Shown here: in pieces, positions 47,785 to 64,000 of the stretch | How positions within the stretch are numbered: the first letter of the stretch is position 1 | Layout of the letters: each line of letters starts with the position of its first letter | DNA from: an uncultured Rhodobacteraceae bacterium | GTDB taxonomy: Bacteria > Pseudomonadota > Alphaproteobacteria > Rhodobacterales > Rhodobacteraceae | Reading direction: 5' to 3' | Assembly (NCBI GenBank): GCA_947494445.1 | Contig: CANLVD010000005.1 | Coordinates: 184,947 to 248,946, forward strand | DNA: 64,000 nt | Translations under genes and position numbers: made by a program | Notes under the pieces: generated by a model | Told to the model about the DNA's origin: nothing | The model's input: the letters and a program-made list of their open reading frames with translations, nothing else | The model's database searches: none

Positions 47785-49461
47785 ATGGCTTTCAAAACCG
47801 ATATTGAAATTGCGCGTGAAGCAAAGAAGAAACCTATTCAGGACATCGGAGCCAAGCTTGGGATCCCGTCAGAGCATCTTGTGCCTTATGGCCATGACAA
47901 GGCGAAGATCTCTCAGGAGTTTCTGAAAACCCTCGGGGACCGCCCCGACGGCAAGCTGATCCTGGTCACTGCCATCAACCCCACGCCTGCAGGTGAAGGC
48001 AAAACCACCACGACGGTCGGTCTTGGGGATGGGCTGAACGCCATCGGCAAAAACGCCGCGATCTGTATTCGCGAAGCATCGCTTGGCCCATGCTTTGGCA
48101 TGAAGGGCGGAGCCGCTGGGGGCGGCTATGCCCAAGTGGTGCCGATGGAGGACATGAACCTTCATTTCACCGGTGACTTTCACGCGATCACATCTGCACA
48201 CAACCTGCTGTCCGCAATGATCGACAACCACATCTATTGGGGCAACAGCCTTGAGATCGATCAGCGCCGGGTCGTCTGGCGGCGGGTGCTTGACATGAAC
48301 GATCGGGCGCTGCGCGACATCGTGACCTCGTTGGGCGGCGTGTCGAACGGGTTCCCGCGTCAGGCAGGATTTGACATCACCGTGGCTTCCGAGGTCATGG
48401 CGATCCTCTGCCTTGCAACCGATCTTGACGATCTGCAGAAGCGTCTGGGCGACATCATCGTGGCGTACCGCCGGGACCGCTCACCGGTGTTTGCGCGCGA
48501 CATCAAGGCAGATGGTGCGATGACGGTTCTGTTGCAGCAGGCCATGCAGCCCAACATCGTGCAAACGCTTGAGAACAACCCTGCGTTTGTTCACGGCGGC
48601 CCGTTCGCCAACATTGCCCATGGCTGCAACTCTGTCATCGCGACGAAATCCGCGCTGAAGCTTGCTGATTTCGTGGTTACGGAGGCAGGCTTCGGTGCTG
48701 ACCTCGGCGCTGAGAAATTCATGAACATCAAGTGCCGCAAAGCGGGCATCGCGCCCGATTGTGTGGTGCTGGTGGCAACCGTGCGCGCGATGAAAATGAA
48801 CGGTGGCGTCGCCAAGGCAGATCTTGGTCCTGAGAACGTGAAGGCCGTGCAGGACGGTTGCCCGAACCTGGGTCGCCACATCTCGAACGTCAAGAGTTTC
48901 GGCGTGCCTGTGGTCGTGGCAATCAACCATTTCGTCACCGACACCGATGCCGAAGTGCAGGCCGTCAAGGACTACGTGGCCGATCAGGGCGCCGAGGCGA
49001 TCCTGTGCAAGCACTGGGCTCATGGCTCGGATGGTACGAAAGAGCTTGCCACCCGCGTGGCCGAGATTGCCGAGGCAGGAGAGGCACAGTTCGCCCCGCT
49101 CTACCCCGACGAAATGCCGCTTCTGGACAAGATCAACACCATCGCGAAGAAAATCTATCGCGCCGAAGAGGTTCAGGTCGACAAGAAGATCGTGGATCAG
49201 TTGGCGCAGTGGGAGGCCGCAGGCTTTGGCAATCTGCCGGTCTGCATGGCCAAGACGCAGTATTCCTTCTCAACCGATCCGAACCAGCGCGGCGCCCCGA
49301 CAGGCCATTCCGTGCCGGTGCGTGAGGTTCGCCTGTCAGCAGGTGCGGGCTTCATCGTGGCCATCTGCGGTGAGATCATGACCATGCCGGGCCTGCCTCG
49401 CGTGCCTTCTGCCGAGGCGATCATGCTCAACGATGACGGCCAGATTGACGGTCTGTTCTGA
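47785..49461 (+). CDS. fhs: formate--tetrahydrofolate ligase
   Basis: Starts [13 protein letters not shown], with P-loop [12 protein letters not shown]. About 558 aa. Confidence 0.95.
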
Positions 49462-49473
49462 GGAGGCAAGACG

Positions 49474-50376
49474 GTGACAGCACAATTGATAGACGGCAAA
49501 GCTTTTGCCGCAACGGTCCGCGAAAAAGTGGCCGCTCATGTTTCCAAGTTGAAGGCCGATCATGACCTGACGCCAGGGCTGGCGGTGGTGCTGGTCGGGG
49601 AAGATCCCGCCAGCCAGGTCTATGTCCGCTCCAAGGGCAAGCAGACGGTTGAGGTCGGCATGAAATCGGTCGAGCACAAGCTGGACCGGGACACATCCGA
49701 GGCGGATCTGCTGGCTTTGATCAAAAGCCTGAACGCTGATCCGACGATCCACGGTATTCTGGTGCAATTGCCCCTGCCGGACCATCTGGACGAGGATCTG
49801 GTAATCAATTCCATCGATCCGGCCAAGGATGTGGATGGGTTTCATATCTCCAATGTGGGCCTGCTGGGCACAGGGCAGAAATCCATGGTGCCTTGCACAC
49901 CGCTTGGCTGTCTGATGATGCTGCGGGATCACCACGGCTCGCTGTCCGGGCTGAATGCGGTGGTTGTGGGGCGGTCCAACATTGTCGGCAAACCGATGGC
50001 GCAATTGCTGCTCGGAGACAGCTGCACAGTCACGATTGCACATTCGCGCACGAAGGATCTGCCCGATGTGGTGCGAGGCGCGGATATTGTTGTGGCCGCC
50101 GTTGGGCGGCCGCAGATGGTTCCCGGTGATTGGATCAAGCCCGGTGCCACGGTGATTGACGTCGGCATCAACCGGATTGATGCGCCTGAGCGTGGTGAGG
50201 GGAAGACAAGACTTGTGGGCGATGTCGATTTTGACAGTTGCGCAGCCGTGGCCGGTGCGATTACGCCCGTTCCCGGCGGCGTTGGTCCAATGACCATCGC
50301 CTGTCTTTTGGCCAACACTCTGACCGCCTGTTGCCGGGCCAATCAGCTGGAAGAACCCGAAGGACTGACTGTCTGA
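49474..50376 (+). CDS. folD: bifunctional methylene-THF dehydrogenase/methenyl-THF cyclohydrolase
   Basis: GTG start. Motifs [22 protein letters not shown] and GRSNIVGKP. Confidence 0.95.
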
Positions 50377-50415
50377 CAGACCTTCCCTGCAAGGAATTGC
50401 TCCAATCCTGACATC

Positions 50416-50447
50416 AGGCACCTCTGCACAGGAGGTGCCTTTTTCTT
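50416..50447 (+). terminator. rho-independent terminator after folD
   Basis: AGGCACCTCTGCACAGGAGGTGCCT followed by TTTTCTTT. Confidence 0.75.
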
Positions 50448-50604
50448 TGCCGGTTCAGATGGCGTTCCGGTCAACCTCACCTCTTGAAACTCCTTCAATG
50501 GGTGATCGCGACTTGTCGCATTCAAGCAAGTTTCGCCGCAGACGGTCCAGAAGACAGTGCTTCACCCGATAGGCTCGCTCAAGACGGAATATGGGAGAGA
50601 TGTC

Positions 50605-53154
50605 ATGCAAACCCAGGCTCGGGTCGTTGTAATCGGCGGTGGAGTGGTCGGATGTTCGGTCCTGTACCACCTTGCCAAGGCAGGCTGGACCGATGTTCTG
50701 CTGATCGAGCGTTCAGAGCTGACTTCTGGATCGTCATGGCATGCGGCAGGCGGGTTTCACACGCTTAACGGCGATCCCAACGTGGCAAAGCTGCAAGCCT
50801 ATACAGTGGGTCTGTACAAGGAGCTGGAAGAGCTTTCGGGCCAATCCTGCGGCTTGCATCTGACCGGTGGTTTCATGATGGCGGATACGCCTGAGCGGAT
50901 GGATTTCCTGCGTGCCGCCCATGCCAAGGGGCGATACCTTGGCATGTCTACGGAACTTGTCTCCCCTGAGGAGGCCAAGGCAATGTTCCCGCTTCTGGAC
51001 ACGTCTCATTTTGTTGGCGGTCTTTGGGATCCGGTTGAGGGCCATCTCGATCCATCAGGCACCACGCATGCCTATGCCAAGGCCGCGCGCAAACTTGGCG
51101 CATCCATCGAGCTGCGCAATCCAGTGGTGGAGATCACGCAGGATGCTGACGGCACCTGGAATGTGGTGTGCGAGAATGGAACCGTGCGCTGCGAGCACGT
51201 GGTCAACGCCGGCGGGCTTTGGGCGCGTGAGGTGGGTCGGATGGTCGGGCTGGAGCTGCCGCTTCTGGCCATGGAGCATATGTATCTTTTGACCGAAGAC
51301 ATCCCCGAGATCGTCGAATTCAACGAGACCCACGGCCGGGAAGTCTGCCACATCATTGATTTCAAGGGTGAGATCTACACGCGTCAGGAACGTAACGGCC
51401 TGCTGGTCGGCACCTATGAGAAAGCCTGTAAACCATGGTCACCGGTGACCACACCATGGGAATTCGGCCATGAATTGCTGGAGCCGGATCTGGATCGCAT
51501 CAGCCCCAGTCTTGAGATCGGCTTCAGGCACTTTCCGGCCTTGGAACATGCTGGCATCAAGCAGGTCATCAATGGACCATTCACCTTTGCACCCGATGGC
51601 AACCCGCTGGTTGGTCCTGTACCGGGCCTGACGAATTTCTGGTCGGCCTGTGCGGTCATGGCAGGGTTCTCTCAAGGGGGAGGAGTGGGGCTGGCGCTGT
51701 CGAACTGGATGGTTCACGGCGATCCCGGGTTTGATGTTTTCGGTATGGATGTTGCACGCTTCGGAGAATGGGCCAGCCTGCGCTACACGAATGCGAAGGT
51801 TCGCGAGAACTATTCCAACCGCTTCTCCATCCAGTTCCCCAATGAGGAACGGCCTGCGGGGCGGCCTGCTCAGACAACGGCGCTCTACGATGTGATGACG
51901 CGCGACAACAATGCGGCCATGGGCTTTTCCTGGGGTCTTGAGACGCCGCTTTGGTTCGCGCCTGAAGGGGAGGCGCCTGTAGATGTGCTGTCTTTCCACC
52001 GCTCAAACGACTTTGAGCATGTAGGTGCAGAGGTCCGGGCTGTGCGCGAGGCTGTTGGCGTCACCGAAATCTCGAATTTTGCGAAATACGAGGTCACGGG
52101 CGAAGGTGCTGAAGACTGGTTGAACCATCTGATGACGAACCGGATGCCAAAGACCGGACGGATCGTTCTCAGTCCGATGCTCAACGAAGCGGGCAAGCTC
52201 ATCGGAGATTTCACGATCGCCAAACCTGCTGAAGACCGTTTTGTGATCTGGGGCTCTTCTGGCGCGCAGATGTATCATATGCGCTGGTTCGATGTGCATC
52301 TGCCCAAAGATGGTTCGGTGCGGATCCATCGTTTTGACCAGACATTGTCGGGTCTTTCTCTTGCGGGGCCAAAGTCACGGGATGTTCTTGCCGCTCTGGT
52401 GGAGTGTGATGTCTCGAACGCAGCTTTCCGCTTCATGGACCACCGGGAAATGGCTGTGGCAGGCGCGCCTTGTCGGGTCAACCGGATCACCTATACCGGT
52501 GATCTGGGATATGAGATCTGGATGCAACCGGCGCATTTGCGTCAGGTCTATGACGGCATCAAGCAGGCAGGTGCGGCACATGGCATCCGGGACTTCGGGA
52601 TGCGGGCTCTGCTGTCGATGCGCTTAGAAAAGAACTTCCCGACTTGGGGGCACGAGTTGCGCCCGATCTATGGTCCAATGGAAGGGGCGATGGAGCGTTT
52701 CGTGAAACTGTACAACACCGACTTCATCGGGCGGGATGCGGCCCTGAAGGAGGCTCAGGATGGCCCGAACCTTCGACGTAGCGCATTTGTCATAGATGCC
52801 GAAACCGCAGACGTGATGCGTGACGAACCGATTTGGGCGCGGGTTGGCGATCAGGATTTTGGCATTTCTGCGCCCGTGCATGACAGTGGTGTCAGACGTT
52901 ACCGGGATGATGGCAGCACAGTCGAGATGGTGAGCAATCTGACAGACGGAGAGTGGCGGGTCGTCGGCTGGGTGACCTCTGGCGGCTATGCGCATTATGT
53001 CGGTCTTTCCATGGCTCAGGGCTATGTTCCAGCGTCCCTGTCTGAGAAAACCGAAGATGGTTTCTTTGAGATCGAGATCCTTGGAAAGCGCTTGCCAGCG
53101 CGTCTTGTCCTTGATCCACCGTTCGATCCCGAAGGTCACATCATGCGTTCTTGA
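50605..53154 (+). CDS. FAD-dependent oxidoreductase fused to a GcvT-type aminomethyltransferase domain (dimethylglycine/sarcosine dehydrogenase family)
   Basis: Start at MQTQARVVVIGGGVVGCS (FAD GxGxxG). Has a large C-terminal folate-binding GcvT-like region. Confidence 0.85.
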   Translation: MQTQARVVVIGGGVVGCSVLYHLAKAGWTDVLLIERSELTSGSSWHAAGGFHTLNGDPNVAKLQAYTVGLYKELEELSGQSCGLHLTGGFMMADTPERMDFLRAAHAKGRYLGMSTELVSPEEAKAMFPLLDTSHFVGGLWDPVEGHLDPSGTTHAYAKAARKLGASIELRNPVVEITQDADGTWNVVCENGTVRCEHVVNAGGLWAREVGRMVGLELPLLAMEHMYLLTEDIPEIVEFNETHGREVCHIIDFKGEIYTRQERNGLLVGTYEKACKPWSPVTTPWEFGHELLEPDLDRISPSLEIGFRHFPALEHAGIKQVINGPFTFAPDGNPLVGPVPGLTNFWSACAVMAGFSQGGGVGLALSNWMVHGDPGFDVFGMDVARFGEWASLRYTNAKVRENYSNRFSIQFPNEERPAGRPAQTTALYDVMTRDNNAAMGFSWGLETPLWFAPEGEAPVDVLSFHRSNDFEHVGAEVRAVREAVGVTEISNFAKYEVTGEGAEDWLNHLMTNRMPKTGRIVLSPMLNEAGKLIGDFTIAKPAEDRFVIWGSSGAQMYHMRWFDVHLPKDGSVRIHRFDQTLSGLSLAGPKSRDVLAALVECDVSNAAFRFMDHREMAVAGAPCRVNRITYTGDLGYEIWMQPAHLRQVYDGIKQAGAAHGIRDFGMRALLSMRLEKNFPTWGHELRPIYGPMEGAMERFVKLYNTDFIGRDAALKEAQDGPNLRRSAFVIDAETADVMRDEPIWARVGDQDFGISAPVHDSGVRRYRDDGSTVEMVSNLTDGEWRVVGWVTSGGYAHYVGLSMAQGYVPASLSEKTEDGFFEIEILGKRLPARLVLDPPFDPEGHIMRS

Positions 53155-53226
53155 CCTTAGGGCAGCTGCAAGAGGCGATTCTCTACCCGCCACGATCCGA
53201 ACACAGTTAACGGAGAACATTTGGCG

Positions 53227-53264
53227 TTAAGCACTGGTTAACCAGCAAGATTGCCCTATATAAT
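53227..53264 (+). promoter_or_regulatory. candidate CtrA-dependent promoter: TTAA-N7-TTAAC box over the -35 position plus a TATAAT -10
   Basis: The box TTAAGCACTGGTTAAC (53227-53242) is a perfect match to the alphaproteobacterial CtrA consensus. TATAAT lies at 53259-53264, 16 nt downstream of the box. Confidence 0.5.
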
Positions 53265-53422
53265 GGGTTCGATCAGCTGAAAAACGCCAAAAGATGACAA
53301 AAACACATGTTTGATATGCATATGATGCATGGCAGTCATGACGAGAATGCACTACTGAATGGTCAAAAAATTGTCATATTGCGCGTCACACCGATTAACC
53401 GGATGAAATGAGGTAGAACGTA

Positions 53423-53737
53423 ATGTTCGATTACGTTGATGAAAATGCTTTCTCCTACGATCAGGGGAAACGCTCACAGAAATTGTTCGCCGCCGTTGTG
53501 CTGGCAGCATTGGATGACGCCATCGCTGATGACAAGAAATACGGCAATGGTCCGGATGTCATTGCCAGATGGGCACGCTCTCGCGATGGGCGCGAGGTCC
53601 TGATGTGCGCTGGCATTGATCCGAACGAGCGGACTGTCAAAGGTATGATGGATTTTGTTGGCCGTGGTGTCAGAACTTCTGTCGCACTTAGCCGCGAAGA
53701 AAGCGAACGTCAGGCTTTGGCGCGCGACGCCGCCTGA
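53423..53737 (+). CDS. small orphan cytoplasmic protein (possible regulator)
   Basis: 104 aa with a GAGG Shine-Dalgarno 7 nt upstream. No signal peptide or TM helix, and no family recognised. Confidence 0.55.
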   Translation: MFDYVDENAFSYDQGKRSQKLFAAVVLAALDDAIADDKKYGNGPDVIARWARSRDGREVLMCAGIDPNERTVKGMMDFVGRGVRTSVALSREESERQALARDAA

Positions 53738-53752
53738 TTTCCAAGAAACCAA

Positions 53753-53774
53753 ATGCCCGCCACTGGCAGGGCAT
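53753..53774. terminator. hairpin between convergent genes (weak terminator candidate)
   Basis: ATGCCCGCCACTGGCAGGGCAT is an imperfect stem-loop. An A-run precedes it, giving a U-run on the minus strand. Confidence 0.35.
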
Positions 53775-53799
53775 CTGTCGATGATCCTAGGCGATTGCG

Positions 53800-54429
53800 T
53801 TAACCGCAGTCGCCCAGTCCTTTTCTAGCGAAGATTTCCACACGTCGATTGCGCGGGTCAGATCCGGCAACGCCCGGTAATGGGCTGGTTTCACCGGCAC
53901 CCACCAGCCAGAACCCGAAACCTTCCGTGCCGATCCGATCTTCAAGGAAGCGCCTGACCAGCTCGGCGCGCCGCAAAGAGACCCGGGCATTTGCATCCTC
54001 TGCGCCGATGGTGTCGGCATGGCCCACAAGTTTGATGCAGGTTCCCTGAAATTCTGGCAGCCGCAATGCATTTGCCAGCTTATTCAGAATCTGCTCAACC
54101 TCGGCGGAAAGCGAACTCGAACTGGCCATGGCCACCGAAAAACTGCCCGTATCAACACTTGCCGCAGGCAGGTTTGTCTGAATGATCTCAGGCTGCGGGG
54201 CAGGGGTCGGAGCGATCGTCTGGGCTGGCGCAAGATCGGCATCTCCACCTTTGGACAAGGCAGTGTGGCAGGTTGCGCGGTCCATGCCGTAAAGTGAAAA
54301 CAGGACTTTGCAATGGGCGTCCACGACCTCTGGTGCAAGCGGGCGTTCGTTTGCAAGAGCGGAACTCATTGAACAGCAGCAAGCAGCGATTAGCGCTAGT
54401 GCAAGACGCGGCAGGTTTGGTAGTCGCAT
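53800..54429 (-). CDS. OmpA-like peptidoglycan-binding (lipo)protein
   Basis: Signal peptide with possible lipobox LIAAC. C-terminal OmpA_C-like motifs (VGHADTIG...NARVSLRRAE...NRRVEI). Confidence 0.8.
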   Translation of the reverse strand: MRLPNLPRLALALIAACCCSMSSALANERPLAPEVVDAHCKVLFSLYGMDRATCHTALSKGGDADLAPAQTIAPTPAPQPEIIQTNLPAASVDTGSFSVAMASSSSLSAEVEQILNKLANALRLPEFQGTCIKLVGHADTIGAEDANARVSLRRAELVRRFLEDRIGTEGFGFWLVGAGETSPLPGVAGSDPRNRRVEIFARKGLGDCG

Positions 54430-54595
54430 GACGGTGTCCTCCTGCGCGGTTTAATAAAAACAAGTCAATAACGCTTCGTAAACGGCGAGGCCCCGTCTTA
54501 AGCCAAGGGCCTGGGAATAATTTTCGGATGCTTCACGGTTAATTTACCGCCCTCAGTCATTTGACGTCACAAATGCCGGGAAGGAGGGAATATCC

Positions 54596-55738
54596 GTGCC
54601 AAAACAATCTGATCGCATGATCTGGCTGGATTGCCTTCGTTTGCTGGCGGGCGTGTCCATGGTCGGGCTTCATGCCTCTTCAGACGCAAACGGACTGCCA
54701 TTTCCTGATTTCCCAGCAGAAGAGCGCGTCTTCCCGGTGCTGTTTCGGTCCGTGATCTACATCGCGCGAACTGAGCTTTTTATCATCATTTCACTTTTCC
54801 TTTTGTGCATGGCCGTGGATGCACGACCTCGCAGCTATGCTGAAATGGTGCGCCAGCAGTTTCGCAGATTGATGGTTCCTTTTGCTTTTTGGGTTGTTGT
54901 TTTTGCGTTCTACAACCTCATCAAGGCACAGCAGTTCGGGTATGTTGATGCAATCCGCACGGACCTTGGAAGTCCTGTCGTCTGGTTAGGGTACTTCGTT
55001 CTGGGCGATGTGAAATACCATATGCATTTCCTTCCCACACTCTTTCCGCTGGTTTTCATGCTGCCACTTTACCGTCTGGCCGTCCGCCATCCGGAACTTG
55101 CATTGGTCATTCTGCTGTGTCTGGCAGCCAAACGTGAGATCGACATGTTCCTGTGGGCCAATCTCAAGGAGGTTGCCGGCTTTGACTACATCGTCCGCTT
55201 CATCAAGGTCCTGACGTATATGGGATATGGAATGGTGGCGGGAGCGTTCTATGGCATCTACACCCGGGGATTTTCCCGGACAGAGGGAACAGCATTGATC
55301 GGTTTAGCGCTGACGGTGGGTTTGATGCTCTATGCGCTCAAGCTCGCCTATTCCTGGCGGGTGATAAACACCGGCAATTGGCAATGGAATTTCACACCCG
55401 CCTTCTGGGCGGACTTTCTGATGCCGGTTGTTGTCTTTCTTGGTGTCATGGCTGCCTGCCACCGAGCATGGCCGTTGATCCTGAGCAAGCTCGCACCATT
55501 CAGTTTTGGCCTTTACCTTGCGCATCCACTGTTTCTTGATCTGGCGGAAATCGGATCGCGAAACTGGGACCTTTCACCCAGTCAATTGGTCATTGTGAAG
55601 GTCACGTTCGCAGTTCTGACCACATCCCTGTTTCTCGCAGGTCTGGCACGTTTCAAACCTCTTGCCTGGACCATAGGCATGGGGCCATTGCCAGGGATCT
55701 TGCGCCTCAAGCTCACGTCTTCGAAAGCCACTCAATGA
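54596..55738 (+). CDS. acyltransferase-3 family integral membrane O-acyltransferase (OpgC/OafA-like)
   Basis: GTG start behind AAGGAGGG. About 10 TM helices and the N-terminal WLDCLRLLAGVSMVGLH motif typical of Acyl_transf_3. Confidence 0.8.
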   Translation: MPKQSDRMIWLDCLRLLAGVSMVGLHASSDANGLPFPDFPAEERVFPVLFRSVIYIARTELFIIISLFLLCMAVDARPRSYAEMVRQQFRRLMVPFAFWVVVFAFYNLIKAQQFGYVDAIRTDLGSPVVWLGYFVLGDVKYHMHFLPTLFPLVFMLPLYRLAVRHPELALVILLCLAAKREIDMFLWANLKEVAGFDYIVRFIKVLTYMGYGMVAGAFYGIYTRGFSRTEGTALIGLALTVGLMLYALKLAYSWRVINTGNWQWNFTPAFWADFLMPVVVFLGVMAACHRAWPLILSKLAPFSFGLYLAHPLFLDLAEIGSRNWDLSPSQLVIVKVTFAVLTTSLFLAGLARFKPLAWTIGMGPLPGILRLKLTSSKATQ

Positions 55739-55772
55739 TACAAAAAATACACAAGAATGAAGCAGGTTTTCC

Positions 55773-57263
55773 ATGAGGTTGATGACTCAAACATACCGGC
55801 AAATCTGTCTGGTTTCACTTGACGACGAGCGGTTCGATCGCAAACGCGTGCCGTCCTTCATCAGTCAGATCAACGGCTTGATCAAAACAGGACAGCGACA
55901 TTTCGTGTTTGACTTCAGCAAGGTACGCCATGTCGATTTCTCGGCGCTGACGGCTGTGGTGACGGTATTCCAATCGCTGGGATCGGCAGGCTCTGCCGGA
56001 CTTTGCGGCCTTGATATCCGCGCCAGTGCCCGGTTGAAACAAGCTGGTCTTGAAAGTGTTTTCGTTCAATGGCCGGATGCGCGGGCCGCACTGAACTATT
56101 ATGGCTTGTCTCCCATCAATTGCTTGCGGACATCTGGCATGCAGGCGGTCGTATTGTCTGGGAAGAGATCCCAGTCAATCTGTTCCATGGCGCCTGGTCA
56201 AACCTCAGCAATGTTTCCTTTGCTGCACCGGCCCGTTCTTGACCATGTCCTGAACTATCTGTCGGTCCACGGACAGCGCAAGGTGGTTGCGAGTGTTGAC
56301 TACGGTATGCCGGAGATCGAAGGCTATTTCGGGCAAGGCGATGCATATGGAATAGACCTTAAGCTCTCGTCTGAAGCCATTATGACAGCAGCGGGCTCGG
56401 TCCCGGCACCCCTTGGCAGTACCGCCAGTCTGAGGCAGTCGCTTCTGTTGCATGGGCCCGGTGATATGCCGGTGCTGGCAATTACCATGGGCTGCCTGCC
56501 CCAAGTTGACCTGACGGCCATGCAGCGTGCGCATAATCGAACCGGAGCGGATATTACCTTGAGCGGCAGCGCAACGATCGGCAGGACTGCACCCTCCGAT
56601 AATCCGGTCTGGTTTGTGGATCACGATGGTGAGGTCAAGGGGCAGGGCAGTTTGCTTCAGGTGCCCCCTGATCTTGCCGGATTTGCAGATACGGGCGTCA
56701 TGATTCTGTCATCACGTGCACTGGATCTTCTCCCCGATGTTGAGGACTTCGATCTGGTTGCAGAATTCGTGCCTGTCGCGATCAAGTCCGGCCTGAAAGT
56801 GGCTCTGGTACGCGATGATGCCCAGAGGATGCTTCTATCGACCTTGTCGGACATCTATTCATCAACCTGCCACCTACTTGATCGCAATGCCTGTTCAAAC
56901 GCACAGGCCCAAGAAGCCTCGTATCTCTTCGCTGACCATGCCGCCACATGCCATATTTCACCCGATGCCCGTATTTCTGGACAGGTATCCTTTGGCACCG
57001 ATGTCGTTGTTCAGGCAGGAGTTGAAATTTCGGGCCCGACCGTTATTGGCGCGGGTAGCTTCATTGCCAAGAACAGCCGGATCAATCGATCACTTCTGAT
57101 GCCCGGCACCAATTTGGCTGAAGGCGCGCGCATCAATGACCTGATCGTCAACAACCAGCAGGCCATGCGTTTGCATCCGCAAAAAGCTGTTGTCGATCTG
57201 CCTGAGCCTGTCCTGCTCCGCCCTGATCAGGTGCCAGAGACACTCTCGAAACAGGCTTCATGA
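55773..57263 (+). CDS. fusion protein: N-terminal STAS (anti-sigma-antagonist-like) domain + sugar-nucleotidyltransferase-like domain + left-handed beta-helix hexapeptide repeats
   Basis: STAS-like block FVFDFSKVRHVDFSALTAVV...ARLKQAGLESVF (aa 8-108). NTP_transferase-like block AVVLSGKRSQS...FPLLHRPVLDHVLNYL...GYFGQGDAYGIDL. Hexapeptide repeats ISGQVSFGTDVVVQAGVEISGPTVIGAGSFIAKNSRI. Confidence 0.7.
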   Translation: MRLMTQTYRQICLVSLDDERFDRKRVPSFISQINGLIKTGQRHFVFDFSKVRHVDFSALTAVVTVFQSLGSAGSAGLCGLDIRASARLKQAGLESVFVQWPDARAALNYYGLSPINCLRTSGMQAVVLSGKRSQSICSMAPGQTSAMFPLLHRPVLDHVLNYLSVHGQRKVVASVDYGMPEIEGYFGQGDAYGIDLKLSSEAIMTAAGSVPAPLGSTASLRQSLLLHGPGDMPVLAITMGCLPQVDLTAMQRAHNRTGADITLSGSATIGRTAPSDNPVWFVDHDGEVKGQGSLLQVPPDLAGFADTGVMILSSRALDLLPDVEDFDLVAEFVPVAIKSGLKVALVRDDAQRMLLSTLSDIYSSTCHLLDRNACSNAQAQEASYLFADHAATCHISPDARISGQVSFGTDVVVQAGVEISGPTVIGAGSFIAKNSRINRSLLMPGTNLAEGARINDLIVNNQQAMRLHPQKAVVDLPEPVLLRPDQVPETLSKQAS

Positions 57264-57356
57264 GAGGCGTGGGATTCCTAAGATTTTAGGCATTTTCAGT
57301 TTTAATGCCCAAGCGATTTAACACTCTTTGACCGATTTGCTCCGATAAGTCCGAGC

Positions 57357-59363
57357 ATGAACATGATAAACGGATCCTTACCGGTATCAGATGCGCAGGA
57401 TGCGCAGAACACAGCACCGGACCCTCGGGTGGTAACCATCAGGGACCGTGTTCTGCCAAACTGGGCCAAGATCCTGATCGCAATCTTTGCGATAAGTTCC
57501 GGCCTGCTGGGGCTGTCTGTCTCTTTCCTGCCGCTGTTTTTTCTCGACTCTGCTATTTTGTCGGGATCCGCCGACTTGATCATGACGATTTTAGGGGTTG
57601 GGGCTGTCCTACTGTCGGGAAGCATGCTCCTGGATTTCATTCGCACCCAGATCCTTGCCGGTCTGGAAAGTGAGCAGAATCGCTACATCACTATTGTGGA
57701 GGCCTGTCTTGGATTGGCTGTCGCAGCGTTTCTGGCTCTGGTTCACCCTTTGCTTGTGTTTGGTGTTCTGTTCAGTGCGGTGCTGACGACGTTGGCGACA
57801 TTCATGTTCATGCGCTTCTTTCCTGTGGATCTCTCGGACAGTTTCGACAAGTCAGAGGCGGCTGCGATGCTGTCGGGCCGCGACCCGTTTGGGCTTTCAC
57901 TCAGTGTCCTTGGCAAGAGCAGGGTTCCGGTTCTGTTTGGCTCGGTGATGCAGCTTATCTCGGGCTTCGGATTTCTGATCGTCTTTGGCACGGGTGCATG
58001 GCTGGTCTCAGAGCATATGATTTCCGAGGGTGGCCTGGTGGCGGCGGCGTTTTTGAGTCTTCGCGCATCGCGTGCCTTTGCCGATTTTGCTCGGCTGGAA
58101 TTCGACAGTGAGGTGTCGCTGTTTGACTGGCTGATGGAACGTCGAAGTCAGGAACGGGCCATGCCTGCAAGCACATCGGATGATGACGTGATAACCGACG
58201 AAATGGCTGAGTCCGATGGACTGCTGGTGTCCAACCTGATGGTGCATTCTGTCGAAGATACCTCGCGTCTGGTCGGGCCGTTGGATTTCAAGGTCGCGAG
58301 AGGGCGTGTGCTGGGTCTGACTGGCGAACGGTCAGGCGGTAAATCTACAGTTCTGAAAGCCCTGATTGCCGGCAAGCGGGCCAATGGCTTTCATGTGTCG
58401 GGCACTGTTCTCATGGATGGCGCATTTCTGTGGCGCTGGAGTTCGCGAAACACCGGTCTGCAGGCCATGGCAGTCCCTGAATCGCCGGCAAACCTTCCGG
58501 GAAGTGGCATCGACAACGTCACGACCTTTGATGAGGAAATCGACGTGCGCGAGGCAAAGGCGGCATTGCAACGCATCGATGTGATGTCCGCTCATACAGA
58601 CCGTATTCTCACCACCAGTGATGCCAGAAGCCTGTCAGCACAGGAGACCAAAATTCTGGCGCTCGCCAGGACTTTTCTGCTTCGGCCAAAACTGTATCTG
58701 CTCGACATGCCGGAAAAGGATCTTTACCCGCGGGGACTGTTCGCTCTCGCCGATCTGATCCGCAAGGAAAAGGAGTTTGGCGCATCCTTTGTAATTGTCT
58801 CCAAAAACCGATCTATCCTGGACCTTTGTGATGAGGTGATTGTTCTTGAGTCCGGCAATATCAACGACCGTGGAACGGCTGAGGAAGTCCTCGCGCGCCA
58901 GGACTCCGGTTGTCATCGGATCGTCGTTGAGCAAAACCCGGATTCAGAAGATCGCCTGTCGGCTTGGGTCAGATCGCTCTACACCCGCAAAGGTGACGAG
59001 GAAAACAGAAAGACAGCTGCAGATCTTGTCAGCGATCTGATTGCCTACTCCTGTGCCGGATCGGGCGCGGCTCCGGGCCAGACCATCTTTGATCTTCGCC
59101 ATCAGGTCGGCTCGACCACGATCACGATGTATGATCATGGCCCCATGCTGTCGACCGTGCAGATTGCGGCAGTGCGGGAGTTGAAGGAAGCCCCTCCGAT
59201 CAACTCTCCCAAACGACCGTTGTGGAACATCGTCAACTCAAGTCTGGAGTTTCATCAGGAGGTCAGCGGCGATGCCGAGGAAACACGCGTCACCAAGGTA
59301 TCGTTCGAAATCTATGACCCACGGCTGAAAGGGGATCCATCATTGAAAGAGGCAGGCAAATGA
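57357..59363 (+). CDS. ABC exporter-like protein (TMD-NBD) with degenerate catalytic motifs and an extra C-terminal RsbW/SpoIIAB-like domain
   Basis: About 6 TM helices (aa 35-245). Walker A GERSGGKST is intact. The signature is LSAQE (canonical LSGGQ), Walker B is LYLLDMPE (no catalytic Glu), and the H-loop position is Lys. About 140 extra residues follow the NBD. Confidence 0.75.
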   Translation: MNMINGSLPVSDAQDAQNTAPDPRVVTIRDRVLPNWAKILIAIFAISSGLLGLSVSFLPLFFLDSAILSGSADLIMTILGVGAVLLSGSMLLDFIRTQILAGLESEQNRYITIVEACLGLAVAAFLALVHPLLVFGVLFSAVLTTLATFMFMRFFPVDLSDSFDKSEAAAMLSGRDPFGLSLSVLGKSRVPVLFGSVMQLISGFGFLIVFGTGAWLVSEHMISEGGLVAAAFLSLRASRAFADFARLEFDSEVSLFDWLMERRSQERAMPASTSDDDVITDEMAESDGLLVSNLMVHSVEDTSRLVGPLDFKVARGRVLGLTGERSGGKSTVLKALIAGKRANGFHVSGTVLMDGAFLWRWSSRNTGLQAMAVPESPANLPGSGIDNVTTFDEEIDVREAKAALQRIDVMSAHTDRILTTSDARSLSAQETKILALARTFLLRPKLYLLDMPEKDLYPRGLFALADLIRKEKEFGASFVIVSKNRSILDLCDEVIVLESGNINDRGTAEEVLARQDSGCHRIVVEQNPDSEDRLSAWVRSLYTRKGDEENRKTAADLVSDLIAYSCAGSGAAPGQTIFDLRHQVGSTTITMYDHGPMLSTVQIAAVRELKEAPPINSPKRPLWNIVNSSLEFHQEVSGDAEETRVTKVSFEIYDPRLKGDPSLKEAGK

Positions 59364-60556
59364 CACAGCCAGATCAGGCTCTGCCAAGGCGTAAAAAGCC
59401 ATCTGTGCTTCGCAAACTGGTTCGGGGCACCGTCGTTCTTTTGTTTACCGGGACGGTCTTCTTTGTCATCGGATGGAGTTGGGGCACTGAGGAAGAGCAC
59501 CTGACCTATCGGGGATGGATGAGTTCCCAAACTGTGGTGGAAACCATCACGATCCCCCGCAGCCACAGTCTTGTGCGGTTGGAAGTGACCGAAGGGCAGC
59601 GCATTCGCGAAGGCCAGCGCATCGCTGTGATCCAGCATAGACCGGACACGAAGCAAGACGTGAATGTAGCGGCCGAGATAGCAGAAATAGACGGGATACT
59701 TGCCTGTTTGACAGGTCAGAGAAGCGCAGGAATACCCGGAACCGACGTGCGTTCTCATGAAATTTGCGAGGCTTTGGCTCCACCAAACCAGATTGATGAC
59801 CCATCATCTGAACTTCAGGTGTTACGCTGGAGGCGTCTCGTCCTGGCATCAAGATTGCTTGACGAATACCAGGCGCAAATCGGACAATCTCCATCGGAAC
59901 TGGCGGCAGGATTATCGCTTTATCAGGATTCCCTGAAAGCAAGGTCGACCTCACTGGAAGGTGGCCTGAGAGCCAAGAGAGCTGGGGCAAATATTAACCC
60001 GGACTTGTTGCGTCAACAGCGTGAAAACCTTGCTGCGGTCCTGAACAAGGTCCGATCCCAATTGGTCAGCCGATCCCAGCAAGCACAGACACCACCCACC
60101 ATGATTGATCTGGTGGCACCACGCTCGGGCCGTATTGTACATCTGCGTGAAGGCGTATCCGGTGTCGAGGCCCGCCAGCCGATCACCCTTGCGCAGATCC
60201 TTCCGGAGACGGTGAGTCCGCCAACCGTGGTATTCGAGATCCCGATTGCCCAGTCGCAGACAATCTCTGTCGGGTCCGAAGTACTTGTGACCACGATCGG
60301 CTTGCCTTCGAAAAGTCAGGAGTTTGTAGGCTTGGTTACAAACCATCGTCTGACGTATTCCCCCGGAACAGACGCTCGGCGCATTGCTCTGACAGTCTTG
60401 TTGGATGACACCGTTGCCGCCGCAATTGAGCAGGATCCGGCATCAGCATTGATTCTGGATCCAGGGTCAATGACGCCTGTTGAGATCAAACCACGACATC
60501 GACCGCTTGGTCTGGTTGGCCTGAAAGCACGCATCCGAACTTTGGTGAGGCTCTGA
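59360..60556 (+). CDS. HlyD-family periplasmic adaptor (membrane fusion protein)-like
   Basis: ATGA overlap with the ABC gene. N-terminal TM helix, lipoyl-like hairpin halves (VRLEVTEGQRIREGQRIAVI ... APRSGRIVHLREG) and a coiled-coil middle. Confidence 0.75.
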   Translation: MTQPDQALPRRKKPSVLRKLVRGTVVLLFTGTVFFVIGWSWGTEEEHLTYRGWMSSQTVVETITIPRSHSLVRLEVTEGQRIREGQRIAVIQHRPDTKQDVNVAAEIAEIDGILACLTGQRSAGIPGTDVRSHEICEALAPPNQIDDPSSELQVLRWRRLVLASRLLDEYQAQIGQSPSELAAGLSLYQDSLKARSTSLEGGLRAKRAGANINPDLLRQQRENLAAVLNKVRSQLVSRSQQAQTPPTMIDLVAPRSGRIVHLREGVSGVEARQPITLAQILPETVSPPTVVFEIPIAQSQTISVGSEVLVTTIGLPSKSQEFVGLVTNHRLTYSPGTDARRIALTVLLDDTVAAAIEQDPASALILDPGSMTPVEIKPRHRPLGLVGLKARIRTLVRL

Positions 60557-60651
60557 CATGGCGATTACATCGGGAAAAATCGTCTCAACGTTATGCATTC
60601 ATTTACGGCATTTTGTTTTGAATGCCGCAAACCGGAAGAGTTAGAGACAGC

Positions 60652-62352
60652 ATGGAACCGTCCAGAAACAACAAGTCCAAGAAAAATCGTGGAGCGCCAT
60701 TCCTGGCGACGGCGCTGTTTCTCGTTGTGGGGACAGCCGTTCTTGCCGGGGCAGTCAGTCTGGGCGACTACGCCAAACATATTTTCCGAAACAAGGAATT
60801 CGAAACCAACCCGATCATCGCCGGTTCCGAGGATGACGATCTGCCCATGCTCATGCGCGGCAACCTGCCAACGGTTACCAACAGTCTGTCTTTTGGTACG
60901 AAAAAGCGCGAGCGTGTTCCACGCATGTGCGAGATGCCCAAAAATTACTATGAAAAGAACCCGTGGCCTGAAGACCTGGTGGTCGGGTATCAAAGAGACA
61001 ACAGTTATGTACGCCCGTACCGTCCCAATCGTGGATTTCTGACCGAGCGGGAAATGGCTGCGGCACGGGTCGCTTGGCACTACTTCGAGTCCTTCACTCA
61101 GGAAAATACCGGATTGGCAAATTCGGTGGGTAACTACCCCTCAACAACCCTGTGGGATACGGCATCCTATATCAGCGGTCTGGTTGCTGCGTATGAACTT
61201 TGCATCATAGAAAAGCCCGAGTTCGACAAACGCGCCTATGCGTTGCTGACAACATTCAAGACCCTCAAGCTTTTCCGTCGCGAGATGCCCAACAAGGTGT
61301 ATCAGACCAAGACAGGCGAGCAGGTGGACTACACCAACAAGCCTGGCGAAGTCGGGTATTCTGCACTGGACATCGGACGCTTTATGGTCTGGATGCGCAT
61401 ACTCAAAAATAGATACCCTTATCTTGGAAACACGATCGATAGTGTTTTGCTCCGGTGGGACTACTCGCGCATTTTTGATGCTGACGGTCTCATGTATGGC
61501 GCGCGCATCGACAAGGAAACTAACGAGACCCTTTACGATCAGGAAGGCCGCCTTGGCTACGAGGAGTATGCTGCAAAGGGATTTGCGCTCTGGGGTTTTC
61601 AACCCAGGCTGGCGCATAGGGCTGAGCCGTTCCTGATGGCCAGTATCTTCGGAATTCAGGTGCCCTATGATGGACGGGACCCCCGTGTATTTCACTCGCA
61701 GAATTATGTGGTTACAGAGTCTTATCTGCTTGATGGATTGGAGTTGAACTTTGATCTTCCGCATGATGATACCAGCCCCGACTGGGTTCATTCCGACGGT
61801 TGGAGAGCAGAATTTGCCGACCGGATCTACCAGGTTCAGGAAAACCGGTACCTAAGAACGGGATTCATGACGGCTCGGTCAGAGCACAACGTCAAAGGCC
61901 CTCCGTATTTCACCTATGATACGATTTTCTCGGATGGGTATCCTTGGAACACTGTCACGCCAAGGGGCGATTACGCCCCTGACCATGCAGCCATTGCTTC
62001 AAAAGCGGCATTGGGGATCTGGTCGCTATGGAAGACAGACTACAGCGGTCTTTTGTTCGATGCGATCATCGACCTCTACAACCCGGAAAGCGGTATGTAC
62101 GAAGGCCTTTATGAAGGCGGTCAGGGACGGGTCGAGATCTATACCGCCAACAACAATGGCATCATTCTTGGTTCACTTTTGCACAAGGTTCAGGGAAAAA
62201 TCCTGACCCCTTACAATGGCCCGACCGAAGTCTGGTATACCGCATTCCGTGATCGCGACATCCGGCTGGTCAGAAACCTTCCTGATCCACCGCAACGCGA
62301 AGACTGGCTTCCAGCTTTGCGTCACTCAACCCAACTGGAGCTAGACTACTGA
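60652..62352 (+). CDS. membrane-anchored periplasmic protein, six-hairpin glycosidase-like (DUF3131-like)
   Basis: N-terminal TM helix (FLATALFLVVGTAVLAGAV), then a domain of about 480 aa with motifs such as TTLWDTASYISGLVAAYEL and SALDIGRFMVWM. Family assignment is from memory. ATG 60622 is an alternative start. Confidence 0.6.
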   Translation: MEPSRNNKSKKNRGAPFLATALFLVVGTAVLAGAVSLGDYAKHIFRNKEFETNPIIAGSEDDDLPMLMRGNLPTVTNSLSFGTKKRERVPRMCEMPKNYYEKNPWPEDLVVGYQRDNSYVRPYRPNRGFLTEREMAAARVAWHYFESFTQENTGLANSVGNYPSTTLWDTASYISGLVAAYELCIIEKPEFDKRAYALLTTFKTLKLFRREMPNKVYQTKTGEQVDYTNKPGEVGYSALDIGRFMVWMRILKNRYPYLGNTIDSVLLRWDYSRIFDADGLMYGARIDKETNETLYDQEGRLGYEEYAAKGFALWGFQPRLAHRAEPFLMASIFGIQVPYDGRDPRVFHSQNYVVTESYLLDGLELNFDLPHDDTSPDWVHSDGWRAEFADRIYQVQENRYLRTGFMTARSEHNVKGPPYFTYDTIFSDGYPWNTVTPRGDYAPDHAAIASKAALGIWSLWKTDYSGLLFDAIIDLYNPESGMYEGLYEGGQGRVEIYTANNNGIILGSLLHKVQGKILTPYNGPTEVWYTAFRDRDIRLVRNLPDPPQREDWLPALRHSTQLELDY

Positions 62353-63926
62353 TGAACAGCAAAAAACTCAGAATGTTGTTGATTGCATCCATCATTGTTG
62401 CAGCAACTCCAACTCATCAGGCTGCTGCACAATCAAATGCAGGACCAGAGAGATTTGACTCCGAAAATGCGGTACTGGACACGTCCAAGCCATTTGCCAT
62501 AGGCGCTACTGAGGCTGAGCAGGCCATTCGCGGAGCTTTTGGATGGCCGGTTTTTCAAGAAGGCATCGTTGCTGGCGCATATTTCCGGTTTGATCCGGAC
62601 GGATACGCACGTTTTGGCCCTTCGCCGCGGCTCGACAGGGATGTCTGGGAGGTAACCTGTGTTGCCCGCACTGTGATCTGTGCAGCCAACAAGATGGGTG
62701 TCGAGGTGGCGCTGACGGATCAGGGCATGATGCAAATGGCCATCTCGGGATTAACTGTGCAGGACACTTTTTTTCTGTCAGACGGGACGTCTGAATTGCC
62801 CTTGCCACCAAGGGTGTTGGAGCCGCTTGATGATCGGCTTGAGGCGCTCCTGATTTCTGGTGGCAACCTTGTTGTTCGTCGTGAAAACGAAACCATTCAT
62901 GACATCAGCCTCAATGGTCTGGGCGCCGTTGTCCCGTATTTGCGGTGGGTTGCCAACAAGCAGGATTACTCTGTTTTGCCTGTTAACTGGCCGATCCCGA
63001 ATTCTGGAAACCAGATTAGTAAAGGGTTGACACAGGTTGCGGACTGGAACGGAAATGGTGCGCCTCCACAGAATTTGCAAACGTCCTGGGCAATGCGAAA
63101 CCAGCAGAATACCGCTCCGAGCGGAGGCTTTGACCAGCAACATCAAAGAGGGAACCAGCCGGTCAATGTTACAATCGTGCCAGGCTTGATGGGCGCAACC
63201 CAGTCCATGCAACAGGCAGGTCTCGGTTCGACAGGATCTGCCGGTGGCAACGAGCTGAATTCTGAGATCTCCCGTCTTGAAGGGCAAATTGCCCAACTTC
63301 AGCAGGCATTCAACAAGGATGCTGAGGTAGCCGGAACGAACTCAGTTGGTCAGCTTCAGTCCAGTTCAAATCAAATGACCCCAACACCGCAAGCAACTCC
63401 ATCAGATGCTATGGGCAGTGATAGCCTCCGACCTTATCTGGAGGAAATTCTGGTTCGTTTGGCTTGGATTCAAAGTGTTTTGCAACCGATTGCTCATGAT
63501 CATGCGCAGGTGTCTGCGGCGCAAAGTGCAGCTCCACACCATTCCACAAGTTCCAGTGGTGTGCTGCAAATGGCCTCTCCAGGACAGCTGGAAACCATGC
63601 CAAGCATAGCCTTGAACCAGATTGCCGGGTTGACGGCTGCTCCAAGTCCTCTGGAACACTCACAAAACAACGCACTGGTTCCCGCCATGCCGTCACTCCA
63701 GCAATCACCCGTTCAGGCTAGCGCTGGGATCTCTCCCGAACTTGAGATGGAAAAGGCTTTGATTGAACGTATTCTGCTTGAACTGGATGAAGGTCAGTCA
63801 GGAAACGCACCCCAAGCGGCAGAGCTTGCACCTGTGGTCACTCCGCAAATTGCCGGCCAAGCTCCTCAGGGAGAGTTCAAGGCAATCACAGATTTCCTGA
63901 ACGAAGCCATGTCGTCAGGCGGCTAG
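62352..63926 (+). CDS. secreted protein with a globular N-terminal half and a Q/S/P-rich low-complexity C-terminal half
   Basis: TGATG overlap with the upstream gene. Signal peptide MNSKKLRMLLIASIIVAATPTHQAAA and a short coiled-coil segment (EISRLEGQIAQLQQAF). Confidence 0.6.
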   Translation: MNSKKLRMLLIASIIVAATPTHQAAAQSNAGPERFDSENAVLDTSKPFAIGATEAEQAIRGAFGWPVFQEGIVAGAYFRFDPDGYARFGPSPRLDRDVWEVTCVARTVICAANKMGVEVALTDQGMMQMAISGLTVQDTFFLSDGTSELPLPPRVLEPLDDRLEALLISGGNLVVRRENETIHDISLNGLGAVVPYLRWVANKQDYSVLPVNWPIPNSGNQISKGLTQVADWNGNGAPPQNLQTSWAMRNQQNTAPSGGFDQQHQRGNQPVNVTIVPGLMGATQSMQQAGLGSTGSAGGNELNSEISRLEGQIAQLQQAFNKDAEVAGTNSVGQLQSSSNQMTPTPQATPSDAMGSDSLRPYLEEILVRLAWIQSVLQPIAHDHAQVSAAQSAAPHHSTSSSGVLQMASPGQLETMPSIALNQIAGLTAAPSPLEHSQNNALVPAMPSLQQSPVQASAGISPELEMEKALIERILLELDEGQSGNAPQAAELAPVVTPQIAGQAPQGEFKAITDFLNEAMSSGG

Positions 63927-63969
63927 CATGACACTGAATTGCTTCGCTCTTGATGCCCAGAGGTAGGCT

Positions 63970-64000
63970 ATGCCAGACGCTTCGATGAGCAAGGCATCCG
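63970..64000 (+). CDS. 5' end of the next operon gene (truncated by the window)
   Basis: ATG at 63970 about 7 nt after AGAGG (MPDASMSKAS...). Only 10 codons are visible. Confidence 0.25.
   Translation, partial: MPDASMSKAS

Follow-up and report, generated by a model that had tools for sequence, protein, structure and literature searches.

The open reading frame (ORF) at positions 55773-57263 of a 64,000-nucleotide stretch of DNA from an uncultured Rhodobacteraceae bacterium (GenBank assembly GCA_947494445.1, contig CANLVD010000005.1; the whole stretch is referred to as the window) encodes a STAS domain fused to a nucleotidyltransferase (NT) domain and a left-handed β-helix, and all five catalytic motifs of its NT domain are replaced. 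We are confident that the window protein belongs to a family in which a STAS domain is joined to an enzyme resembling the UDP-glucose pyrophosphorylase CugP. This fusion family is uncharacterised, recurrent and unnamed by curated models, and its named genomes are all Rhodobacterales. The window protein itself is in all probability a pseudoenzyme. Our tentative reading is that it serves as a non-catalytic adaptor docked to an ABC-like protein in a β-glucan locus.

The reading frame of the STAS-NT gene is open over 496 codons, the other two forward frames contain 18 and 24 stops, and its GC content at the three codon positions (GC1/GC2/GC3) follows the pattern of the neighbouring genes. An initial annotation, made from the DNA letters and translated reading frames, had assigned the N-terminal 110 amino acids or so to a STAS domain and the remainder to a nucleotidyltransferase and hexapeptide-repeat body. 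The first assignment was borne out by the Pfam model for STAS (PF01740), which matched residues 4-97 with 29.4 bits and thus above its gathering score of 22.6. For the remainder, the Pfam models LbH_EIF2B, Hexapep and Hexapep_GlmU matched at residues 392-463, each below its cut-off, and the Pfam scan gave no NTP_transferase (PF00483) match in the window protein. The best NCBIfam model, a mannose-1-phosphate guanylyltransferase at residues 123-463, yielded 71 bits and did not reach its cut-off of 440. When the protein was compared with solved structures by phmmer, residues 119-460 aligned with PDB entry 8x7s (E 4e-19). This entry is Tlr0611 from Thermosynechococcus, deposited as UTP-glucose-1-phosphate uridylyltransferase. 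We take Tlr0611 to be CugP, the enzyme that supplies UDP-glucose for cellulose; the CugP-type UDP-glucose pyrophosphorylase was reportedly described by Maeda et al. in 2014, and no publication on tlr0611 was found.

The window protein was modelled with AlphaFold2 from a 44-sequence family alignment, giving a mean predicted local distance difference test (pLDDT) value of 82.6 and a predicted template modelling score (pTM) of 0.78 for the whole protein. The N-terminal domain adopted the β-α fold of STAS proteins with a pLDDT of 80-91, and the strands of the β-helix (residues 400-466) were predicted with values above 90. The best Foldseek match of the model was again 8x7s (E 1.5e-22, template modelling (TM) score 0.79 on the target), followed by GMPPA/GMPPB, VTC1/KJC2, ADP-glucose pyrophosphorylases (AGPases) and eIF2B. 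Structure (8x7s, GMPPB, VTC1 and AGPase) and phmmer both gave a Rossmann-like NT domain with a left-handed β-helix behind it, which agrees with the layout proposed at the outset.

The motifs were compared by aligning the window protein with 43 fused relatives and the CugP-like enzyme of Vibrio. None of the five catalytic motifs that mark CugP/GMPP-type pyrophosphorylases is preserved in the window protein (Table 1). At the signature loop, relatives read LAAGKGTRVKP or LAAGKGTR(V)RP and the window protein reads LSGKRSQSICS. The initial annotation had located a degenerate loop at 56145-56177, which corresponds to residues 125-135 (AVVLSGKRSQS) with correct coordinates, and had noticed that the lysine of the PKP motif is absent; the degeneracy turned out to be wider than it claimed. 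In RmlA/GMPP-type enzymes, the motif residues bind phosphate, Mg2+ and the sugar phosphate. Since the phosphate-, metal- and sugar-phosphate-binding residues are lost, the window protein can probably not make a sugar nucleotide, as judged from its sequence. Some elements that line the pocket are kept, namely PLGS (residues 213-216), DTG (residues 306-308) and the D246-L pair, and Lys131 and Arg132 are still present in the altered loop. According to the model, a foldable STAS domain, the Rossmann core and the β-helix are kept despite the loss of the motifs. With catalytic residues replaced at five of the five motifs in the profile alignment, the earlier suggestion of a pseudo-enzyme rather than a catalyst is the best-supported reading.

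An exhaustive HMMER search over 1.84 billion cluster representatives (clusters of 50% identity) found 43 other representatives whose alignment with the window protein runs from STAS domain to β-helix, so that the family comprises about 44 clusters in total. The fused proteins are 461-556 aa long, most of them 475-510 aa. The best match, P0015, aligned over residues 9-459 with 28% identity to the window protein (E 4.8e-43), and the precomputed Pfam annotation of both P0015 and P0019 is STAS plus NTP_transferase. Approximately two-thirds of the fused members keep every catalytic motif, as in P0015 with LCAGKGTRARP...PKPM, and about 14-16 (roughly a third) lack all of them, the motifs having been lost together. 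The architecture is thus recurrent and not the one-off that it had appeared to be when the window was read on its own, and most members with this layout have intact motifs. The remark in the initial annotation that no STAS-NTP_transferase fusion has been characterised stood up: the architecture search led to a recurrent family with no assigned function, no NCBIfam model reached its cut-off for the window protein or for intact or degenerate members, and no publication was found on a STAS-nucleotidyltransferase fusion or on CugP together with STAS.

In a neighbour-joining tree, the fused proteins were set apart from CugP-like enzymes that lack the fusion and come from cyanobacteria, betaproteobacteria and gammaproteobacteria. 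Their nearest non-fused relatives were cyanobacterial and betaproteobacterial proteins resembling 8x7s and the CugP-like protein of Vibrio. Motif-less members occupied at least four positions in the tree, and some of them were sisters to intact ones. A word search with the single protein retrieved only relatives at ≤33% local identity, mostly 21-26%, and a profile word search with the family alignment returned the same generic GMPP/PMM matches only. The identities were then broken down by domain. The NT domain is 47% identical among intact members and 21% identical between the window protein and intact members; the corresponding values are 24% and 17% for the STAS domain and 37% and 30% for the β-helix. 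By these alignments, the excess divergence of the window protein is concentrated in the NT domain, with STAS and β-helix near the family norms. Other motif-less members show the same pattern, with 29% identity in the NT domain.

Genomes were scanned for fused genes with an alignment of 16 intact members. Such genes were found in Thalassovita mediterranea, Litoreibacter and four metagenome-assembled genomes (MAGs) of Pseudomonadota, and they lie in one common locus. The first part of its canonical order is an OmpA-like gene on the minus strand, an acyltransferase-3 gene, the STAS-NT gene, a family 2 glycosyltransferase (GT2) synthase and a short DUF3131 gene. The later part consists of a gene for a 524-aa protein and a long DUF3131 gene, both on the minus strand, and then the ABC-like gene and the gene of a membrane-fusion protein (MFP). 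By sequence, the GT2 is a processive synthase of the BcsA kind (E 1e-30 versus E. coli BcsA). With 615 aa against 886-908 aa it falls short of the E. coli protein by about 270 aa, and Pfam did not report a PilZ domain in it. The window shares this locus context with its OmpA-like and acyltransferase-3 genes, the ABC-like protein and MFP, the long DUF3131 protein and the 524-aa protein.

The locus of P0040 (L004) is arranged like the window: the ABC gene directly follows STAS-NT, and GT2 and short DUF3131 are missing at that position. The ABC proteins of L004 and the window share 39% identity, compared with 28-29% between the window and canonical loci. P0040 is the closest relative by context; it is likewise motif-less and shares 22% identity with the window protein. 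As both are full-length ORFs at such low identity, they appear to have been maintained for long after the loss of catalysis. The motif-less P0019 and P0100 are still encoded directly upstream of the synthase. In the case of P0019, the GT2 and DUF3131 genes are intact, so that a protein of this kind can persist in a functioning locus once catalysis is gone. In the locus of P0100 (L087, 11565-14097 and 19758-20984), the GT2 gene is broken up into three ORFs and the gene for long DUF3131 into two. As for P0015, which has intact motifs, the next gene (L003 2067-2909) encodes a signal-peptide protein and not the synthase. A homologue of this neighbour adjoins the gene of the 524-aa protein in Litoreibacter (L008 18060-19262), from which it follows that the gene order around STAS-NT is fluid.

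The STAS domain is related to anti-sigma-factor antagonists. A profile of the family STAS domain matched the solved antagonists 4qtp, TM1442, RsfB and SpoIIAA with E values from 1e-13 to 1e-8, and MlaB weakly with about 1e-4 (2e-4). With the single STAS sequence of the window, the PDB search gave nothing significant, and the family profile was needed for these matches. Over 58 residues, the STAS domain of the window shares 33% identity with the Vibrio STAS protein whose gene adjoins the CugP-like gene. The initial annotation had pointed to a serine in the VDFSAL segment (55941-55943) near the site at which SpoIIAA and RsbV are phosphorylated. Its coordinate is correct and the residue is Ser57, but it is not the canonical phosphoacceptor. 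This column, a serine directly after the conserved aspartate, is taken by us to be that of SpoIIAA S58 and RsbV S56. In an ungapped alignment of VDFSAL with MDSSGL of the Vibrio STAS protein (canonical DSSGLG), it is occupied by Phe56, and the profile alignment with TM1442 (MDSAGLG) likewise placed Phe56 there. The window protein reads D55-F56-S57-A58-L59 where the acceptor pattern is D-S-[STA]-G-L. Across the fused family, the acceptor column is variable and the conserved serine is the next residue, corresponding to Ser57. In addition, tblastn searches with the RsbW kinase and the REC-PP2C phosphatase of Vibrio gave no match in the 64-kb window. Because the acceptor column holds a phenylalanine and the window contains no RsbW or PP2C gene, phosphorylation of the window STAS domain in the manner of SpoIIAA is unlikely.

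A candidate partner is encoded directly downstream. The ABC-like protein contains about 4-6 transmembrane segments, a degenerate nucleotide-binding domain and an extra C-terminal domain. Its matches to Pfam ABC_tran and to an NCBIfam model of the type I secretion PrtD-like kind were below cut-off. Its ATPase motifs lie at 58323-58349, 58632-58646, 58692-58715 and 58791-58811, and of these Walker A is intact. The signature LSGGQ reads LSAQE, the catalytic glutamate after Walker B is replaced by methionine (LLDMPE; arginine in most orthologs) and the histidine of the H-loop by lysine. Degenerate ATPase motifs are common to six out of six orthologs (L004-L009), so these losses, shared by the window and its orthologs, characterise a conserved pseudo-ATPase family and not a local defect. 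A metagenome scan with a two-sequence alignment of the ABC protein retrieved generic ABC ATPases only.

The C-terminal domain of about 150 aa was present in all seven fused loci that are long enough to show it. Its AlphaFold2 model for the window protein was calculated from a shallow alignment of four sequences and reached a pLDDT of 79 and a pTM of 0.75, with the topology β-α-α-β-β-α-α-β-β. In a Foldseek search against the PDB, the top twelve matches were all SpoIIAB, RsbW or UsfX (E 2e-6 to 4e-4, TM score 0.47-0.75); several of them come from complexes with STAS partners, and ATP-binding domains of histidine kinases rank next. As read from the alignment, the N-box asparagine is absent, the helix being SDLIAYS (AELLAFS in orthologs), and the glycine-rich G2 box is missing as well. 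On the strength of the predicted fold, we read this domain as an RsbW-like pseudokinase that had not been recognised before.

Unfused counterparts of these components occur in other bacteria. A cluster in Vibrio sp. THAF190c was reached by tblastn over plasmid and chromid records (Table 1). It starts with genes for a REC-SpoIIE phosphatase, a STAS protein with the canonical DSSGLG, an intact CugP-like enzyme and an RsbW-type kinase (HATPase_c_2), and ends with the same GT2, BcsA-like and without a PilZ match, and three DUF3131 genes. The genes are ordered identically in a MAG of Sphaerotilus (L034 8403-19915), whose RsbW-like ORF possesses the N, G1 and G2 boxes, and the modules of the two bacteria end with three to four DUF3131 genes. 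These clusters look like an uncharacterised glucan system that is independent of cyclic di-GMP (c-di-GMP). Free-standing RsbW kinases are found in the unfused loci and the ABC-fused RsbW-like domain in the fused loci, i.e. their distributions are complementary. The fused family looks like a hard-wired descendant of a free-standing module of REC-PP2C, STAS, CugP and RsbW. On a plasmid of Streptomyces sp. NBC_00464 (L001 5624-8505), a STAS gene overlaps by 4 nt with a gene for an NTP_transferase-phosphomannomutase fusion. This pair adjoins an AGE-family epimerase gene and represents an independent linkage of STAS and pyrophosphorylase in Actinomycetota. Given the unfused neighbours in Vibrio, Sphaerotilus and Streptomyces, the link between STAS and pyrophosphorylase predates the fusion and extends beyond it; in Vibrio and Sphaerotilus, it is embedded in a full set of partner-switching genes.

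In the adaptor reading, to which the gene neighbourhood points, the STAS domain would dock without phosphorylation on the SpoIIAB/RsbW-like pseudokinase domain of the ABC-like protein, and the β-helix would oligomerise the window protein as in its relatives. The protein would thereby serve the apparatus for glucan export and processing, on its cytoplasmic side, as a regulatory subunit or an adaptor without catalytic activity. In the intact relatives, the same docking would set the synthesis of UDP-glucose at the membrane beside the synthase. A more far-reaching proposal, which we consider doubtful, is that phosphorylation-driven partner switching has been turned into a hard-wired complex made up entirely of pseudoenzymes, which gates β-glucan synthesis or export in Roseobacter-type bacteria. 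Docking in such a complex would perhaps be modulated by the binding of a nucleotide or sugar nucleotide and not by phosphorylation.

Several known systems resemble parts of this arrangement. The CugP-type enzyme Tlr0611 (8x7s) is the best match in sequence and fold and has the same layout of NT domain and left-handed β-helix, but the window protein fails every catalytic feature of it. GMPPA, KONJAC (KJC2), GlgD, the large subunits of AGPase and eIF2B gamma/epsilon belong to the same fold class and were among the fold matches. Catalytically dead NT-β-helix paralogs of the GMPPA and KJC2 type act as regulators, and pseudo-pyrophosphorylases of the GMPPA type form hetero-oligomers with an active paralog, the pyrophosphorylase body taking a non-catalytic role. 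The window protein differs from the GMPPA/KJC/GlgD type in its STAS domain, and no active paralog was seen in the 64-kb window; furthermore, GMPPA keeps a near-canonical GxGTR nucleotide loop and the window protein does not. In the SpoIIAA-SpoIIAB, RsbV-RsbW and RsfB-UsfX pairs, the antagonists SpoIIAA and RsfB are matched by the STAS profile and their partners by the model of the ABC C-terminal domain. Here, however, both halves are fused to other proteins, and the kinase-like half is devoid of the N-box asparagine and the glycine boxes.

All4160 from Anabaena and XssP from Synechocystis have an N-terminal STAS domain fused to an enzyme of a polysaccharide pathway, a 'bacterial sugar transferase', and are controlled via STAS phosphorylation by the REC-SpoIIE phosphatase HenR and RsbW-type kinases, a strategy that was called cyanobacteria-specific (PMC13555669). 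They resemble the window protein in the STAS fusion, and the HenR and RsbW parts are those found unfused in the Vibrio and Sphaerotilus loci. In contrast to them, the window fusion is proteobacterial, involves a nucleotidyltransferase and has a phenylalanine in the acceptor column, and its fused form appears to be independent of phosphorylation. Tripartite β-glucan secretion is known from BgsA/BgsB/TolC for a mixed-linkage glucan and from a cyanobacterial cellulose system, with synthases under the control of c-di-GMP (PMC13438883). The fused loci share with BgsA/BgsB/TolC a BcsA-like synthase and an MFP of the HlyD type; they differ in the shorter synthase without a PilZ match and in the addition of the ABC-like pseudo-ATPase, the DUF3131 proteins and STAS-NT. 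In the MlaB-MlaF system, a STAS protein also works with an ABC protein, and MlaB was weakly matched by the family STAS profile, but this profile matches the SpoIIAA type far better (E 1e-13). MlaB attaches to the nucleotide-binding domain of its partner. Docking of the window STAS domain on the nucleotide-binding domain in the style of MlaB was considered and found less economical, given a STAS domain of the SpoIIAA type and an extra RsbW-like domain. The GlgC-binding protein CipG was rejected as a STAS precedent, as it is a pentapeptide-repeat protein.

A number of points weigh against the adaptor reading. The RsbW-like assignment draws its whole support from one AlphaFold2 model of four sequences. 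The ABC C-terminal domain had no Pfam match, HATPase_c_2 included, in seven out of seven orthologs; BLASTP and hhalign comparisons of it with Vibrio RsbW were negative, and so was a profile search against the PDB. The docking of the STAS domain to this modelled domain is itself something that we infer. Neither the GT2 synthase nor a short DUF3131 gene occurs anywhere in the 64-kb window, which ends 74 nt past the last gene, and the two may lie beyond base 64000. The glucan machinery that the window protein would serve may be incomplete here. The split genes in L087 suggest that this locus is a decaying copy. The window protein is extremely divergent: its closest relative is the one at 28% identity, and no closer one was found in 5.8 billion proteins, a set with one genome per species and JGI metagenomes. 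Finally, the neighbour-joining tree carries no support values, and its large motif-less cluster may partly be due to long-branch attraction.

Some of these points fit a decaying remnant better, i.e. a gene under relaxed selection after the synthase was lost or moved, whose function is gone and whose frame is still open. There is no GT2 in the window at the canonical place, no gene of the locus is more accelerated than STAS-NT, which retains 0.44 of the normal identity, and the motif-less member in L087 is accompanied by split GT2 and DUF3131 genes. Such a remnant is nonetheless rather improbable, as it does not go well with an intact frame of 496 codons next to 18 and 24 stops in the other frames, a confident fold prediction and an excess divergence found in the NT domain only. 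P0040, which has the same derived context and 22% identity, is intact too, motif-less P0019 stands beside an intact GT2 and DUF3131, and the neighbouring genes of the window are intact, the long DUF3131 protein being 72% identical to orthologs. A functional role other than that of an adaptor would be that of an allosteric sensor, as put forward in the initial annotation, in which the dead pocket binds UDP-glucose or another nucleotide sugar and signals via the STAS domain or the β-helix to the export machinery. The precedent is inactive GMPPA, which binds GDP-mannose and inhibits GMPPB. In favour of a sensor, GMPPA/GMPPB and VTC1/KJC2 are among the best fold matches, and PLGS, DTG, D246-L, Lys131 and Arg132 are retained. 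We still regard it as unlikely, since every phosphate- and metal-binding residue is replaced, the GxGTR loop that is near-canonical in GMPPA is not found in the window protein, and the 64-kb window contains no intact paralog that could be regulated.

Two further explanations are much less probable. An active pyrophosphorylase or other nucleotidyltransferase with a non-canonical active site could make use of the preserved Rossmann fold and the basic residues Lys131 and Arg132 of the loop. The joint loss of five independent catalytic motifs makes this very improbable, as do the missing PF00483 match and the NCBIfam score of 71 bits against 440. Hardly to be expected at all is a classical anti-sigma-factor antagonist, in which a sigma factor would be set free depending on the phosphorylation of Ser57, with the enzyme-like body as an input domain. 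The STAS domain is indeed of the SpoIIAA/RsbV type and has a serine beside the canonical site, but the acceptor column itself holds phenylalanine and varies in the family, and the window has no gene for an RsbW-type kinase or PP2C phosphatase. No sigma-factor gene was seen among the scanned genes of the locus (53.4-64 kb; a window-wide search for sigma factors was not made), and the context is that of polysaccharides throughout.

If the adaptor reading is true, direct action of STAS and partner-switching modules on polysaccharide enzymes would no longer be confined to the one case shown so far, a cyanobacterial glycosyltransferase (PMC13555669), but would also concern Proteobacteria and the supply of sugar nucleotides. 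The more doubtful hard-wired complex of pseudoenzymes would, if it exists, be an undescribed form of c-di-GMP-free control of polysaccharide secretion. The analysis defines an unannotated STAS-CugP-like family and a putative RsbW-like domain on an ABC-like pseudo-ATPase. It also provides a natural series from enzyme to pseudoenzyme, leading from unfused and phosphorylatable (Vibrio, Sphaerotilus) through fused and catalytic (Thalassovita, Litoreibacter) to fused and probably dead (window protein, P0040 and P0019). The conserved and uncharacterised glucan locus occurs in abundant marine Rhodobacterales and may play a part when cells attach to surfaces and colonise particles. Concerning annotation, the window protein should not be named mannose-1-phosphate guanylyltransferase or NDP-sugar synthase.

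Table 1. Features of the STAS-NT gene, its protein and the surrounding locus; positions refer to the window unless another record is given.
Feature	Position	Strand	Size or residues	Basis or remark
OmpA-family protein, N-terminal signal-like hydrophobic stretch	53800..54429	-		Pfam OmpA; divergent from operon
Acyltransferase-3 membrane protein	54596..55738	+		Pfam PF01757, E 1.5e-28
STAS + degenerate (probably dead) nucleotidyltransferase + left-handed β-helix gene	55773..57263	+	496 aa	
STAS domain, SpoIIAA/RsbV type	55773..56108	+	res 1-112	
Phe56-Ser57, Phe in canonical phospho-Ser column, Ser57 one residue later	55938..55943	+		Alignments
Nucleotidyltransferase (Rossmann-like) domain, catalytic motifs lost	56133..56900	+	res 121-376	
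Signature loop L-x-A-G-x-G-[TS]-R-x-x-P replaced by LSGKRSQSICS	56154..56186	+		Alignments
PKPM(L/I)xx replaced by TSAMFPLL, catalytic Lys lost	56202..56225	+	res 144-151	
CGDA replaced by MGCL, metal-binding Asp lost	56487..56498	+		Alignments
Q-E-K-P replaced by GSLLQ, sugar-phosphate-binding Lys lost	56646..56660	+		EKP column reads SLL
W-x-D-x-G replaced by RMLLS, second Asp lost	56826..56840	+		Alignments
Left-handed β-helix (hexapeptide) domain	56955..57170	+	res 395-466	
ABC-exporter-like protein	57357..59363	+	668 aa	93 nt downstream of STAS-NT
ABC C-terminal domain, predicted SpoIIAB/RsbW-like (GHKL) fold	58902..59360	+	153 aa, res 516-668	
HlyD-type membrane-fusion protein (MFP)	59360..60556	+		Pfam HlyD_3; 4-nt overlap with ABC gene
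Long DUF3131 protein, N-terminal membrane anchor	60622..62352	+		Pfam PF11329, E 1.8e-113
Secreted protein of unknown family, signal peptide	62352..63926	+	524 aa	No Pfam match
Vibrio sp. THAF190c module	L002 6473-15692 (NZ_CP045339.1)			Pfam assignments

In the window, the OmpA-like gene forms a conserved border of the locus and is found at the same place in L005-L010 and L087. The acyltransferase-3 gene ends 34 nt upstream of the STAS-NT gene and precedes it in every related locus. The MFP has one N-terminal transmembrane segment, and an equivalent gene follows the ABC gene in L005-L008. With 72-75% identity to its orthologs, the long DUF3131 protein is by far the most conserved product of the locus; sequence comparison gave no solved relative for it, and no publication was found that gives a function for DUF3131. 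In the 524-aa protein, the N-terminal part of about 240 aa is conserved (50-57% identity over approx. 215 aa in L005-L009) and the C-terminal half is rich in Q, S, P and A, as read from the translation. Relative to the normal identity, STAS-NT and the ABC-like protein reached 0.44 and 0.58, compared with about 0.86 for acyltransferase-3 and long DUF3131. By this measure, STAS-NT and the ABC-like gene show the strongest acceleration in the locus, which fits a co-diverging pair without proving it. Scans for promoters and terminators remained at background level.

Where the polysaccharide locus (∼53000-64000) begins, the GC content falls from approx. 0.59 to approx. 0.53, and at third codon positions it is likewise lower than in the upstream housekeeping genes. 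This drop may reflect horizontal acquisition of the locus or simply a locus-specific composition. Just beyond the border of the locus lies a small DUF6280 gene (53423-53737, E 1e-44). Further upstream (43638-53154), the translations were read as TilS-like, FtsH, formate-tetrahydrofolate ligase, FolD and dimethylglycine-dehydrogenase-like proteins, and these ordinary housekeeping genes suggest a chromosomal setting rather than a mobile element.

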